Below are positions 1,740-33,249 of a stretch of DNA of 39,067 nt, in pieces (position 1 is the stretch's first letter; the number at the start of each line of letters is the position of its first letter). Origin of the DNA: a virus. A program made the translations under genes and the position numbers. A model generated the notes under the pieces. It worked only from the letters and a program-made list of their open reading frames with translations. It did not search any database and had not been told where the DNA came from. The stretch is from the IMG/VR virus record IMGVR_UViG_3300005326_000032. The stretch is one strand, 5' to 3'.

Positions 1740-3422
1740 ATGGCAACAAGTACAGCCCAAGACTACGAGGAAAAGGGGAGAAAAAAGGAGTATGATAAAG
1801 CATATTGGCTATCCTATACTAAAGAGAAGTTTGAAGAGAGTAGAAACTGGAGAGGTGAGAAAGTAGAGTTGCAGTGGTTTGTTAATTACATGTACTACAA
1901 GGGCAACCAGAACCTCAAGTTTGATAAAACAACAGGTAGTTTTGTAAAAGATGTTAGAAACCCACTTACCTTTTACATTAATCACACTTATATGGTGTGT
2001 AGAGCTGTAAGAAATGCTGTAATGAAGACAAGACCAACTTGGGATGTAGACGCTTTGCCTTACGGGGAATTAGATAAAGATACAAGTAGAATATTAGGTG
2101 AATACTTAGCGTTCCAATACGATAGGCTCAACATTGAAGAGAAGATGAACAAGGGTTTGCTTTATGGTTTGCTTTACGGACTTGGTGTATTTCAATATGG
2201 ATACGATGATAGATTAGATGATGGAGAGGGGAATGCTTGGATAGAAGCACTTGATCCGTTTGATACCTACATTGACCCATATTGTACAAGTATGGAAGAC
2301 GCAAGGTATGTTGTTAAGGTTATGAGTAAGCCTTACGAGCTGATTAAAGACAACCCTAACTACGATAAGAAGATAATAGAAGATTTAAGTACCACCTCGG
2401 CACTGAGCGAAAGTGATTATAAAAACCTAATACTTAATAGTGAAAATAACACGAGTAATTCTACTAAGAACTTAATACTTCACGAAACATGGTGTGTTAC
2501 TAAAGATGGGATACGAGTAATAACAACTTGTAATGATGAAATACTAAGAAACGAGTTGTCTGAGTTTAAGAAACTTCCGTTTGAAATATACCAACCTGAT
2601 ATTAACATAGGTGGTATTTATGGTGAGGGTTGGGTTAAAAACATAGTACCCCTTAACAAAGCTTCCAATTACCTAGAAACAAGTAGGCTTGAGTACAATA
2701 TCCTCATAAACAAGGGAAGACTTCTTATACCAAAGGGTGCAGGAGTTAAGAGTGTTACAAATCAAAATGGAGAAAAGATATATTATAAGAACGGATTTAA
2801 ACCAGAGTTTCTACCTACACCTCCAATGGGAAGTGATGTAGACAGACAGATTAATGCACTTGGAACTTACATTCAGTTAATAGGTGCCGCAAACGAGGCG
2901 TTTATTGGACAAACACCAACGGGAGTTAAGAGTGGAATAGCTATTGAAAGTTTAATTGCTGCTAATTTCAATCAGTTGTACGACTTGGTCAACAACCTAT
3001 CAAACACCTTAGCAAGGCTTGGAGAGGACATACTTGAAATGGGATACAAGTATCAGTTGCTTACAAAGCCATTCAGAAGCTCTACAGGGGAGTATTATGG
3101 AATATTAGGTGGTGGAATGGAACCAAAGGAAATGGAAAGACTTATGCAGGTTGTTGCAATACCATCTAACCCAGAGGTTAAGGTAAGAATAACCAGTGGG
3201 GTAGCACATACCAAAGAGGGTAAGAAAGAGATACTAATGACCCTAAGAGCAGGTGGAGATGTGAGTAGAAAGACATTGCTTGAGGGATTAGACATTGACA
3301 GTGAAGAAGAAGCAGAGAGATTACTAGAAGAACAAATGCCACCTGAGCCACAGGGAGGAATGCCGACAGAAATGGATCCTAACATGCCACTACCAGAGGG
3401 TATGCAATTACAGGTACCCTAA
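1740..3422 (+). CDS. Portal protein
   Basis: 560 aa. Position after terL and before scaffold/capsid, typical portal size, acidic Pro/Glu-rich C-terminus. No SD; ATGGCA start. Confidence 0.8.
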   Translation: MATSTAQDYEEKGRKKEYDKAYWLSYTKEKFEESRNWRGEKVELQWFVNYMYYKGNQNLKFDKTTGSFVKDVRNPLTFYINHTYMVCRAVRNAVMKTRPTWDVDALPYGELDKDTSRILGEYLAFQYDRLNIEEKMNKGLLYGLLYGLGVFQYGYDDRLDDGEGNAWIEALDPFDTYIDPYCTSMEDARYVVKVMSKPYELIKDNPNYDKKIIEDLSTTSALSESDYKNLILNSENNTSNSTKNLILHETWCVTKDGIRVITTCNDEILRNELSEFKKLPFEIYQPDINIGGIYGEGWVKNIVPLNKASNYLETSRLEYNILINKGRLLIPKGAGVKSVTNQNGEKIYYKNGFKPEFLPTPPMGSDVDRQINALGTYIQLIGAANEAFIGQTPTGVKSGIAIESLIAANFNQLYDLVNNLSNTLARLGEDILEMGYKYQLLTKPFRSSTGEYYGILGGGMEPKEMERLMQVVAIPSNPEVKVRITSGVAHTKEGKKEILMTLRAGGDVSRKTLLEGLDIDSEEEAERLLEEQMPPEPQGGMPTEMDPNMPLPEGMQLQVP

Positions 3423-3437
3423 GTAGTGTTACGAGCA

Positions 3438-3446
3438 TGTTATAAT
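3438..3446 (+). promoter_or_regulatory. Extended -10 promoter TGTTATAAT
   Basis: Family motif in the portal-scaffold intergenic region, 123 nt upstream of ATG 3570. Confidence 0.45.
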
Positions 3447-3464
3447 TTAATGTACTTAGTGCGT

Positions 3465-31537: not shown

Positions 31538-31539
31538 AT

Positions 31540-31611
31540 CGCAGGGAAGTGTAACGGTTGCACTTTAGGTTCATAGCCTAAGAGTAGTTAGTTCAATTCT
31601 AACCCCTGCAA
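31540..31611 (+). tRNA. tRNA-Met (anticodon CAT); C1-A72 mismatch
   Basis: Hand-folded cloverleaf. Acceptor CGCAGGG/CCCTGCA, D-arm GTGT-AACGGTT-GCAC, anticodon arm TTAGG-TTCATAG-CCTAA, variable GAGTA, T-arm GTTAG-TTCAATT-CTAAC. No encoded CCA. Confidence 0.8.
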
Positions 31612-31626
31612 GTTCTTTTAATAATT

Positions 31627-31806
31627 TGTATGAGGTACTTTGGTGGTGTAATAGGTAGACGCAGGTTTATGTCACAGGGGCAAAGTGATTCTCCTAATCA
31701 GAGCAGCCTGTCCGCTCGGCCGAAATGTGTTGCGTGATTCGCATTGTAGCAAAGTAGGCCACTGGATGTTGTAGGGTGCAAATCCTTACCCAGAGTATCT
31801 CATACA
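31627..31806 (+). ncRNA. Structured RNA 1: tRNA-like RNA with 17-bp terminal helix, D-arm, T-arm and an ~80-nt internal insertion
   Basis: 31627-31643 pairs with 31790-31806. D-arm GTGT-AATAGGTAG-ACGC at 31646-31662. GGTTT+ATGTCAC at 31664-31675. T-arm-like GTAGGG-TGCAAAT-CCTTAC at 31771-31789. Confidence 0.55.
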
Positions 31807-31829
31807 GGTTATTAGCTCTTTAATAATTG

Positions 31830-31954
31830 AGTGTACAGAAGTAAGGTACAAGTCGGACATATCTGTTCTATATTCTAGAAGAGCAGTGGGTCTCCGAGCC
31901 AATAACAAGTAAGGTTGCAAGATACCTTGTGCGGTTCAGTTACTTCTGTATATT
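31830..31954 (+). ncRNA. Structured RNA 2: rod-like stem-closed RNA
   Basis: 31830-31844 pairs with 31940-31954 (15 bp, two G-U). A second helix joins 31846-31852 and 31926-31932. Internal hairpins TTCTA-TATTC-TAGAA (31866-31880) and TCGGA/TCCGA (31853-31857 / 31893-31897). Confidence 0.45.
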
Positions 31955-31993
31955 GAGTTATTAAGGAGTAGTTTAATTTAATCAGAAGAGAAG

Positions 31994-33175
31994 ATGAAAG
32001 AAATCAACACAGAAAAAACACAGGTAAAACTATGGTTAGAAGATATAGAAGATGGAGCTATGGAGCAGATAAAAAACATTGCTAACTTGCCATTTATATA
32101 TAAGTGGGTTGCAGTAATGCCTGATAGTCACCAAGGGTATGGTATGCCTATTGGTGGGGTTGTAGCTCTTACTGATGTTATTAGCCCCAATATGGTGGGC
32201 GTAGATATTGGTTGTGGAATGTGTGCGGTTAATACTCATATAAAAACCGAAAGTATTACGCAGGAACAATTAAAAGAGATACTTGGTGGTATTAGAAAGG
32301 TTGTACCAGTTGGGTTTGCACACCACCAGAAGAAACAAGACGAGAGTTTAATGCCTTTTAGTAACAGTAAGGGTGCTAATGGTGTAGTCGTATCTCAGGA
32401 GTATGACAACGCTTTAACACAAATAGGAACACTTGGTGGGGGTAATCACTTTATAGAATTACAGAAAAGTAGTGATGGAGAGCTATGGATAATGATACAT
32501 TCGGGTAGTAGAAACTTGGGTAAACAGGTGTGCGACTACTACAATGCAAAAGCTATTGAGTTAGCTAAGAAGTGGTATATACCAAATGTTATAGAACAAG
32601 ACTTAGCATATCTACCTACCGATACTAAAGAAGGTCAAGATTATATACAAGAAATGCAGTATTGCGTTGACTTTGCATTTGCTAATAGAAAGCTAATGAT
32701 AGAAAAAGTTATGGGAGTAATAACAGATGTACTTGGGGATTACAAAGCAGATGAGATAATTAACATAGCACACAACTACGCAAGGTTGGAAAATCATATG
32801 GGTAGGAATGTATGGGTTCACAGAAAAGGTGCAACAAGTGCAAGACTAGGAGAGGTTGGAATTATACCAGGCTCTATGGGTACAAAGTCATATATAACAG
32901 AGGGGTTAGGGAATGTTCAATCTTTTATGAGTTGTTCACACGGAGCAGGTAGAAAAATGGGTAGAATGGAAGCGAGTAGAAGTATAACATTAGAGGAAGC
33001 AGACAAGTCTATGGAGGGAGTTGTATATGGTAGGTGGGGTAAGGATAGGAAAGGTAATTTAGATTTTGGAGAAGCACCACAAGCGTATAAGGACATAGAT
33101 GTTGTTATGGAAAACCAGAAAGACTTAACAAAAATATTGGTGGAATTGAAGCCACTAGCAGTTGTTAAGGGATAA
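31994..33175 (+). CDS. rtcB: RNA 3'-phosphate/5'-OH ligase RtcB
   Basis: 393 aa. Motifs MPDSHQGYGMPIGGV, DIGCGM, GGGNHFIE, HSGSRNLG, AHNY, HRKGAT, GSMG and SCSHGAGR appear in canonical RtcB order. Confidence 0.95.
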   Translation: MKEINTEKTQVKLWLEDIEDGAMEQIKNIANLPFIYKWVAVMPDSHQGYGMPIGGVVALTDVISPNMVGVDIGCGMCAVNTHIKTESITQEQLKEILGGIRKVVPVGFAHHQKKQDESLMPFSNSKGANGVVVSQEYDNALTQIGTLGGGNHFIELQKSSDGELWIMIHSGSRNLGKQVCDYYNAKAIELAKKWYIPNVIEQDLAYLPTDTKEGQDYIQEMQYCVDFAFANRKLMIEKVMGVITDVLGDYKADEIINIAHNYARLENHMGRNVWVHRKGATSARLGEVGIIPGSMGTKSYITEGLGNVQSFMSCSHGAGRKMGRMEASRSITLEEADKSMEGVVYGRWGKDRKGNLDFGEAPQAYKDIDVVMENQKDLTKILVELKPLAVVKG

Positions 33176-33249
33176 CAGGGATTGGCTCAGATGGCTAGAG
33201 TGCCTGCATTGGAAGCAGGAGGTCGCAGGTTCAAGTCCTGCATCCCTGA
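33176..33249 (+). tRNA. tRNA-Pro (anticodon TGG)
   Basis: Hand-folded cloverleaf. Acceptor CAGGGAT/ATCCCTG, D-arm GCTC-AGATGGCTA-GAGT, anticodon arm CCTGC-ATTGGAA-GCAGG, variable AGGTC, T-arm GCAGG-TTCAAGT-CCTGC. It starts at the base after the rtcB stop. No encoded CCA. Confidence 0.9.

Follow-up and report, generated by a model that had tools for sequence, protein, structure and literature searches.

Analysis of a phage sequence of 39,067 nucleotides (IMG/VR record IMGVR_UViG_3300005326_000032, hereafter the window) identified a tRNA-like RNA, designated RNA-1, upstream of a gene encoding the RNA ligase RtcB, and placed it in a widespread family of phage and prophage RNAs. These RNAs combine a covarying tRNA top half devoid of a decoding arm with a structured, selected and exchangeable module, and their genes are placed like tRNA genes. 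The best explanation for these features is that RNA-1 is a non-decoding tRNA-Leu-type scaffold bearing an exchangeable RNA module, a reading to which we assign a probability of about one half. An earlier examination of the DNA letters alone (the sequence-only reading) had proposed either an intron-bearing tRNA-Asp matured by the adjacent RtcB or a tRNA mimic or decoy. The latter option pointed the right way, in that RNA-1 is tRNA-like and possesses an acceptor stem, a D-arm and a T-arm; the former received no support from tRNA finders, relatives or other RtcB loci.

Covariation in a family of phage and prophage RNAs

Relatives of RNA-1 were gathered by T-arm sequence, with the D-arm and the acceptor stem playing no part in the collection. 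The exact T-arm 19-mer (GTAGGGTGCAAATCCTTAC) was detected in 29 IMG/VR contigs, and a query degenerate at two positions matched 98 stretches of GTDB genomes, yielding approximately 100 distinct relatives in phages and prophages. Nearly all T-arm matches presented the same architecture: a 7-bp terminal stem, TG, a D-arm, a middle region, a U, the T-arm and the 3' strand of the stem. The sequence of the 7-bp stem varies between genomes and the middle ranges from 32 to 194 nt. The D-arm follows the pattern G[C/T]GG-AATAGGTAG-AC[G/A][C/T], with TGGCGGAATAGGTAGACGC present in 46 of 100 members and the rest differing by compensated changes.

In a 41-member alignment without the window, the acceptor stem was 97.9% paired and presented double (compensatory) changes at all seven of its pairs, the D-stem showed GC to AU and CG to UA changes, and the fourth T-stem pair occurred as AU, GU or GC; in register-shifted controls, pairing dropped to approximately 40%. 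A covariance model derived from 41 relatives (R2), again without the window and its twin (L145), had its sole match in the window at positions 31634-31800 (58 bits, E = 6e-14). This covariation and the R2 match establish that the tRNA-like features are real and that RNA-1 is a bona fide member of the family. The 17-bp helix, D-arm and T-arm described in the sequence-only reading lie far beyond chance, and homologs of RNA-1 show covariation in all three stems (acceptor, D and T).

The D-arm and T-arm are near-invariant in phages of Bacillota, candidate phyla radiation (CPR) and Proteobacteria hosts. Searching GenBank phages with a D-arm plus T-arm query returned 170 records, 64 of them with both arms, and the carriers include Listeria phages B054, B025 and LP-101, EFDG1-like Enterococcus myophages, Lactobacillus phages LP65, phiJL-1, Sha1 and ATCC 8014-B2, and phages of Weissella, Brochothrix and Paenibacillus. 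The RNA lies at positions 45463-45580 in B054 (NC_009813), 41913-42089 in B025 (NC_009812) and 53748-53950 in LP65. The GenBank annotation under the matches is either absent ('none') or a hypothetical coding sequence, and the small hypothetical open reading frames (ORFs) gp75, gp64 and orf80, annotated on or beside the RNA in GenBank phage records, are probably spurious calls. Rfam searches of the window, 14 family loci and a sister phage (L174), at the gathering threshold and at E<=10, returned true tRNAs only, and ARAGORN reported no genes on 14 short relatives. The family is apparently undescribed and Rfam 15 contains no matching family; the open-access full-text literature yielded no description of it, an earlier description elsewhere being possible.

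Structure of RNA-1 in the window

The features of RNA-1 and of its locus are compiled in Table 1. The 17 contiguous base pairs between positions 31627-31643 and 31790-31806, two of them G-U, form the outer helix in both the minimum free energy (MFE) and centroid folds of RNA-1 (z = -2.8, with 0 of 200 shuffles as stable), and the inverted repeat runs imperfectly to 25 nt (31619-31643 with 31790-31814). Among 96 members, the contiguous acceptor helix measures 7 bp in 35, 8 bp in 28, 9 bp in 20, 10-12 bp in 12 and 18 bp in one, the latter being the only one of the 96 members listed with a helix beyond 12 bp. Since few members extend the helix far past 7 bp, the 17-bp helix of RNA-1 is a local peculiarity. 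With 17 bp, or 25 allowing for mismatches, it may redirect end formation, through RNase III or by preventing trimming, or it may clamp the ends of the RNA.

Table 1. Features of RNA-1 and its locus in the window.
Feature	Coordinates	Strand	Basis or remark
tRNA-Met(CAT)	31539..31612	+	ARAGORN; Rfam RF00005, 47.7 bits; ends 14 nt upstream of the RNA-1 helix
RNA-1, whole helix-closed tRNA-like RNA	31627..31806	+	Fold; family model match
10-bp acceptor-helix extension, 5' strand	31627..31636	+	Pairs with 31797-31806; lineage-specific
Acceptor-like stem, 5' strand ACTTTGG	31637..31643	+	Pairs with 31790-31796; covarying in the family
U8-G9 and class-II (tRNA-Leu-type) D-arm, TG GTGT AATAGGTAG ACGC	31644..31662	+	TG 31644-31645, D-arm 31646-31662
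Variable module, 108 nt	31663..31770	+	Folds; identical in L145
T-arm, 6-bp stem GTAGGG/CCTTAC, loop TGCAAAT (G for U55)	31771..31789	+	Exact 19-mer searches; stem covariation
Acceptor-like stem, 3' strand CCAGAGT	31790..31796	+	Covariation
10-bp helix extension, 3' strand	31797..31806	+	A31797 at the discriminator position, yet paired
RNA-2, helix-closed structured RNA candidate, outside the family	31816..31968 (core 31832-31955)	+	Fold, inverted repeat
RtcB RNA ligase	31994..33175	+	Pfam PF01139, E = 1.4e-116
tRNA-Pro(TGG)	33176..33249	+	ARAGORN, Rfam; begins one base past the RtcB stop codon

The window module consists of a 6-nt linker, a multibranched domain closed by AUGUC.../...GGAUGU and a final U ahead of the T-arm, and it spans the segments that had been assigned to an anticodon loop, an intron and a hairpin at 31686-31700. 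The hairpin exists, embedded in a more extensive fold adopted by the middle, and the AUGUCAC taken for an anticodon loop constitutes the 5' strand of the helix closing the module domain. The module also contains a 22-codon ATG...TGA frame at 31669-31737 (MSQGQSDSPNQSSLSARPKCVA); the modules of relatives are unrelated and use of this frame is unsupported.

Absence of an anticodon arm and of an intron

The tRNA-Asp hypothesis rested on a U33-GUC-A37 anticodon loop (GGTTT/ATGTCAC), closed by AGGCC at 31756-31760 across an intron at 31676-31755. All the strings listed in the sequence-only reading are present where they had been placed, but none of these three assignments rises above chance. Three of the 100 distinct members possess a 5-bp, 7-nt hairpin with U33 and R37 immediately following the D-arm, a frequency no higher than the 5% obtained by shuffling the middles. 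Likewise, the layout with an intron at position 37/38 could be drawn in 7 of 100 members, against 4.9 expected from shuffles, and these seven cases, one of which is the window's twin, carry seven different anticodons. The AGGCC closure requires two G-U pairs and an 80-nt gap, only three contiguous pairs forming directly in the window, and the proposed boundaries of the intron are at chance level.

At its default threshold, ARAGORN called only tRNA-Met and tRNA-Pro in the window, both without and with its intron search (-i), and the Rfam tRNA model RF00005 did not match RNA-1 at E<=10. After in silico removal of the 80-nt segment, ARAGORN made no call at the default or 90% threshold and a marginal tRNA-Asp call at 80%. 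Rfam returned no intron or ribozyme match on the window, and a group I intron would require more than 80 nt. No splicing endonuclease domain was detected in the ORFs scanned, some small ORFs lying outside the scan. Given that no finder calls such a gene at default thresholds, that neither an anticodon arm, an anticodon nor an intron position is conserved, and that the family is not linked to RtcB at other loci, we conclude that RNA-1 is not an intron-bearing tRNA-Asp.

A structured and exchangeable module

With a mean MFE z of -1.1, the middles of family members are more stable than their shuffled counterparts. In 52% of middles, versus 14% of shuffles, exactly 2 nt separate the end of a helix from the T-arm, and a single closing helix spans the entire middle in 52%. 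For one module type, sampled from six genomes (Levilactobacillus and Lactobacillus prophages, Lactiplantibacillus phage H1-Guo, Hujiaoplasma phage zrk29-2 and IMG/VR contigs), RNAalifold returned the acceptor, D- and T-helices, a 7-nt linker and two unpaired nucleotides before the T-arm; the module itself folds into a single long hairpin, which shows compensatory changes and contains an internal loop, GCGAGUAACGGGU, that does not vary. Because middles fold on their own and because of this RNAalifold layout, the architecture is modelled as a class-II tRNA core without an anticodon arm, in which an expanded domain occupies the position of the variable arm. The MFE folds of other middles suggest the same variable-arm-like layout. 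No motif was found to be shared across modules; CsrA-type GGA triplets were not enriched, and only 3' YAU and, to some extent, UAAG were.

The 100 distinct middles cluster almost wholly as singletons, and several lines of evidence point to their exchange. Four prophages (L045, L055, L068 and L069) have the same flanks and acceptor stem around unrelated middles, and many different middles are found inside the recurring acceptor stem GUGCUUG/CAAGCAC. One module is shared, at 91% identity, by a Tenericutes phage and a Levilactobacillus prophage. The twin L145 shares with the window only positions 31642-31791 (150 nt, 98.7% identity), including a 108-nt middle that is 100% identical, and presents another acceptor stem (CTTAGGG/CCCTAAG) and unrelated flanking DNA. 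This copy, at positions 3290-3456, adjoins a tRNA-Thr gene on a 39.5-kb contig binned with a Candidatus Dojkabacteria metagenome-assembled genome, and the sharing hints at related (possibly CPR) hosts or at a recent move of the cassette.

The sister phage L174 resembles the window in its flanks (94%) and its RtcB gene DNA (88.6%; both by blastn) and in its RtcB protein (95% identical). It retains both strands of the 17-bp helix around a different interior of approximately 110 nt without a D- or T-arm, and its slot for RNA-2, the structured RNA following RNA-1 in the window, is filled by another helix-closed sequence. When positions 2095-2470 of L174 were compared with 31613-31968 of the window, L174, whose tRNA-Met and flanks are identical, proved to carry three helix-closed cassettes after tRNA-Met. 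The spacer between tRNA-Met and RtcB is a hot spot for the swapping of structured RNAs. As judged from the L145, L174 and prophage comparisons, interiors and frames assort independently, and swaps within the family would be explained most simply by recombination in the invariant arms. A single phage or prophage may also hold two or three different copies (L053, L098, L111, L116 and L153), each with its own module, within 1-2 kb of one another and in some instances in tandem.

Likeness to tRNA-Leu and departures from translational tRNAs

The D-arm half of the family model R1 aligned to annotated phage tRNA-Leu(TAA/TAG) genes via their acceptor stem and D-arm (25-31 bits), and sequence comparison thus points to derivation of the family from a class-II, leucine-type tRNA. 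All 100 members have U as the base preceding the T-arm, and in 77 of them an A stands ahead of it; this invariant U fits an A15-U48-type pair. With tRNA-Leu the family also shares the 7-bp acceptor stem, U8, a D-arm that matches near letter for letter and contains G18G19, and a hairpin that stops just ahead of the T-arm, as a long variable arm does. In contrast to tRNA-Leu, the family lacks an anticodon arm, contains a hypervariable middle and goes undetected by tRNA finders. Its T-stem has 6 bp, resulting in an acceptor/T stack of 13 bp, and its T-loop reads UGCAAAU, against UUCRANY in tRNA-Leu, with a G where tRNAs carry U or pseudouridine (psi) at position 55. The first T-stem pairs are U-A and A-U, followed by A-U, G-U or G-C. 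No CCA is encoded, position 74 being U in 63% of members, and the discriminator (position 73), A in tRNA-Leu, is A in 50% and U in 36%.

Staphylococcal non-proteogenic tRNAGly molecules, tRNA bodies kept outside translation, have TGC in the T-loop and first T-stem pairs rich in A and U, which lowers their affinity for EF-Tu (PMC7826273). The T-loop and T-stem of the family resemble these hallmarks, with TGC for TTC and A/U-rich first three T-stem pairs. Unlike members of the family, these tRNAGly are complete, aminoacylated tRNAs with an anticodon arm, dedicated to cell-wall synthesis (PMC7826273).

Genomic context of the family and of RNA-1

Clustering of the genes neighbouring 110 family loci outlined a typical placement at the start of the late/packaging operon, between a late regulator and HNH or terminase genes. 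Two small late-regulator-like protein families lie upstream of the RNA on the same strand (20 and 17 loci), the regulator being labelled DUF1492 in the H1-Guo annotation. The genes downstream encode an HNH endonuclease (19 loci, same strand), a P27-type small terminase (10 loci) and large terminases (13, 7 and 4 loci). In large phages such as EFDG1, the RNA is located within tRNA arrays and on the tRNA strand, and in Leuconostoc phage Ln-9 it lies approximately 160 nt from the genome end. A terminator-like hairpin follows the RNA in 23 of 96 members. In the tRNA arrays of member-bearing large phages, ARAGORN also reported a tRNA-SeC(TCA) (L052, 737-832), a tRNA-Pyl(CTA) (L067, 3225-3300) and a tRNA with a 4-nt anticodon (L062, 11374-11445), all of them possible suppressor or recoding tRNAs.

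The window is a phage genome, with terminase and portal genes at 95-1432 and 1740-3422. No BLAST relative of this phage was found among GenBank phages, and BLAST searches with the region and its relatives against INPHARED phages and E. coli genomes gave no match. RNA-1 and RNA-2 lie in the order tRNA-Met(CAT), RNA-1, RNA-2, RtcB, tRNA-Pro(TGG). When approximately 120 other phage RtcB loci (43 from IMG/VR and 80 from metagenomes) were searched with the family models, no members were found; RtcB hence neighbours RNA-1 through a shared tRNA-cluster location and not as a maturation partner. The adjacency of RtcB and tRNA-Pro(TGG) recurs in six otherwise different phages (L002, L003, L006, L007, L009 and L023), in L021 RtcB lies within a 23-tRNA array, and in L014 a transfer-messenger RNA (tmRNA) gene precedes it.

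RNA-2 is closed by a 29-nt imperfect inverted repeat (arms 31816-31844 and 31940-31968; fold z = -2.7) and matches neither R1 nor R2. It holds a T-arm-like hairpin, AAGGU-UGCAAGAU-ACCUU; a second family built on this hairpin was discarded, the 21 IMG/VR matches to its 18-mer being coding sequence (KVARYL) in unrelated phages. RNA-1 and RNA-2 share end motifs, TTTAATAATT at the 5' side (31617-31626 and 31819-31828) and (A/G)GTTATTA at the 3' side, which extend their stems to 25-29 nt and could serve in processing of the RNase III type, as boxes resembling promoters, or as frames for recombination. As a target-site duplication, the 10-nt direct repeat TTTAATAATT is not clean, and a scan for sigma-70 promoters and terminators around both RNAs gave nothing above shuffles.

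Comparison with known tRNA-like RNAs

Bacterial Y RNAs, including YrlA, are non-decoding mimics of the tRNA D-arm, T-arm and acceptor stem that occur in phages, sometimes beside rtcB, and in which a long stem can close the ends (Chen et al. 2014, PMC4201824). YrlA differs from RNA-1 in being circularly permuted (T-arm, acceptor stem-loop, D-arm), in its Ro60-binding helix and its GNCGAAN0-1G motif, and in having a same-strand TROVE gene no further than approximately 4 kb away (PMC4201824); the neighbours of RNA-1 are RtcB and tRNAs. The sole GNCGAA in RNA-1 (GCCGAAAUG, 31720-31728) is devoid of the closing G. RNA-1 was rejected as a Y RNA, for it has no TROVE gene among the ORFs scanned, the wrong order of arms and no motif.

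The tRNA-like domain of tmRNA parallels RNA-1 in the order of 5' acceptor strand, D region, large inserted body, T-arm and 3' acceptor strand. Unlike tmRNA, RNA-1 has a full canonical D-arm, a U-A at pair 3-70 in place of G3-U70, and neither a conserved tag frame nor a pseudoknot body; aragorn -m found nothing in the window, and no reading frame is conserved among members. The species 1 and 2 RNAs of phage T4 (rnaC and rnaD) are also small stable RNAs from a phage tRNA cluster, and a T-arm and acceptor strand resembling those of tRNA form the end of rnaC; its T-arm, however, is the canonical GGTTCGAATCC. Kinship with either T4 RNA was dismissed, as there is no sequence or model similarity and R1 finds nothing in the T4 tRNA region (L073).

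A further architectural parallel is artificial. In the engineered 'tRNA scaffold', a structured foreign RNA takes the place of the anticodon region, so that the fusion undergoes processing and gains stability as a tRNA would; the arrangement in the family is natural and widespread, with hundreds of modules. In summary of these comparisons, RNA-1 fails the defining tests of tRNA-Leu, Y RNA, tmRNA, the T4 RNAs and tRNAGly. What appears to be new is a phage tRNA-like non-coding RNA with a hypervariable, horizontally exchanged module, tRNA mimics as such being already known.

Interpretation and alternatives

On the view that the RNA is tRNA-shaped yet unable to decode, the conserved half is best interpreted as a scaffold and the module as an effector. 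The RNA gene would be transcribed together with neighbouring tRNAs, and its tRNA-like half would be recognised by RNase P, RNase Z and the CCA-adding enzyme, giving rise to a stable tRNA-shaped RNA. Lacking an anticodon arm, with G55 in place of psi55 and a T-stem predicted to be weak in EF-Tu-type binding, this RNA would be excluded from decoding. The conserved top half would then act as a processing and stability scaffold, and the module would carry a specific activity, for instance the binding or sequestration of a host or defence factor. A broader view is more tentative and falls short of even odds: that phages of many bacterial phyla plug hundreds of modules, traded as cassettes, into a tRNA scaffold that ensures processing and stability and keeps them off the ribosome, in what would amount to an RNA-level accessory or anti-defence repertoire, so far without annotation even in familiar phages of Listeria, Enterococcus, Lactobacillus and Leuconostoc. 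Under it, cassettes would be traded by recombination within the invariant D- and T-arms, and the modules would act on host or defence factors.

Several observations weigh against a scaffold carrying an effector. Both its processing by RNase P and RNase Z and the division into scaffold and cargo are steps that we infer. In the window, the closed helix of 17-25 bp would bury the RNase P and RNase Z sites, and L174 presents the same helix around a non-tRNA-like interior, indicating that the slot in this lineage does not require a tRNA-like part. The invariance of the T-arm arises in part by construction, from a collection seeded on the T-arm, and the unconserved discriminator argues against a single aminoacylation identity. 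Furthermore, no antisense target for the window module was evident in the phage (longest complementarity 11 nt, as in shuffles), and no protein family co-occurs specifically with the RNA, its neighbours being generic late-region genes.

Among the alternatives, the most substantial is that the elbow formed by the acceptor stem, T-arm and D-arm acts as a decoy or sponge, titrating or occupying a host enzyme that binds tRNA or a defence effector directed at tRNA, with the middle as stable, non-decoding filler. The near-invariance of both arms across phages of very different hosts, the missing anticodon arm, the likeness of the T-loop and T-stem to tRNAs kept off EF-Tu, and the tRNA-repair cluster with RtcB surrounding RNA-1 are all in keeping with it. 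Modules, however, are structured beyond chance, one type displaying compensatory changes and an invariant internal loop, and a module conserved at 98.7-100% over its whole length between unrelated genomes, together with several different copies per phage, is unlike neutral spacer; nor did neighbour clustering reveal a co-occurring defence or anti-defence gene. Since whole modules are under selection and transferred, we consider the decoy rather unlikely. A cis-acting processing or punctuation element is less likely again. In this case the fold would be a cleavage signal for RNase P and RNase Z, or for RNase III, separating or stabilising segments of polycistronic early or late transcripts, and the released RNA would be functionless. 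Such an element would suit the location at the start of late/packaging operons or between tRNAs, the inverted repeats of 25-29 nt around RNA-1 and RNA-2, which have TAATAATT/GTTATTA ends in common, and the retention in L174 of the helix and not of the interior. An ordinary tRNA or hairpin would do for this purpose, though, which leaves unexplained the conservation of a Leu-type D-arm and a UGC T-loop, as well as the selection on modules and their horizontal spread, and about a quarter of members have a terminator-like hairpin of their own, like stand-alone RNA genes.

The remaining alternatives relate RNA-1 to its immediate neighbours or to degenerate tRNAs. The succession RNA-1, RNA-2, RtcB is reminiscent of yrlB-yrlA-rtcBA in Salmonella, and bacterial and phage Y RNAs are likewise tRNA mimics whose terminal stem is long (PMC4201824), which might suggest two helix-closed, Y-RNA-like partners of RNA repair acting with RtcB or with a host Ro60. 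This possibility is very unlikely: no TROVE/Ro60 domain was detected in the 17 ORFs scanned and no Rfam Y RNA match at E<=10, the arms follow the D...T order of tRNA and not the permuted order of YrlA, the helix is perfect and lacks a bulged Ro site, most members have a stem of only 7-9 bp, and the other phage RtcB loci contain no member. A tRNA-Asp(GUC) with an intron of approximately 80 nt, cut by an endonuclease and with its exons joined by RtcB, can draw on the existing GGTTT/ATGTCAC/AGGCC strings, the adjacent RtcB and the 80% ARAGORN call on the spliced sequence. The chance-level arm and intron models with inconsistent anticodons in 100 relatives, the lack of default-threshold and Rfam tRNA calls, the G55 of the T-loop, the lack of a splicing endonuclease in the ORFs scanned and the lack of RtcB linkage elsewhere render it highly improbable. 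Least probable of all is a functionless, decaying tRNA-Leu pseudogene or recombination scar within a tRNA cluster. The tRNA-Leu-like D-arm and the tRNA debris in some middles (L051 has a canonical T-arm and L060 a D-arm in duplicate) are what such a relic might show, but the acceptor, D- and T-stems covary strongly over approximately 100 genomes from many phyla, which a pseudogene would not maintain.

New biology has come from each of the tRNA mimics described before (among them tmRNA, Y RNAs and viral tRNA-like structures), and the present family is common and resides in long-studied phages. The combination of a fixed tRNA half with a hypervariable, horizontally exchanged module suggests that phages possess an RNA effector system of modular design and, if the modular reading is true, would provide a natural precedent for engineered tRNA scaffolds. 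Cultured carrier phages make the family directly testable, and its recognition bears on annotation, since annotators now place spurious small ORFs over the RNA or leave the region blank.

Divergent members

A few members depart from the common architecture. One measures 248 nt (L052, 1898-2145), and the copy at 7382-7551 of L060 contains an extra insertion of approximately 50 nt in the D-loop. The module of L051 (1358-1510) includes a canonical tRNA T-arm (GCGGTTCGAGTCCGC). Lastly, an element in L153 (568-670) with a weaker model match (40 bits) combines the same T-stem, GTAAGG/CCTTAC, with a canonical TTC T-loop, and may represent a transitional form linking genuine class-II tRNAs to the family.

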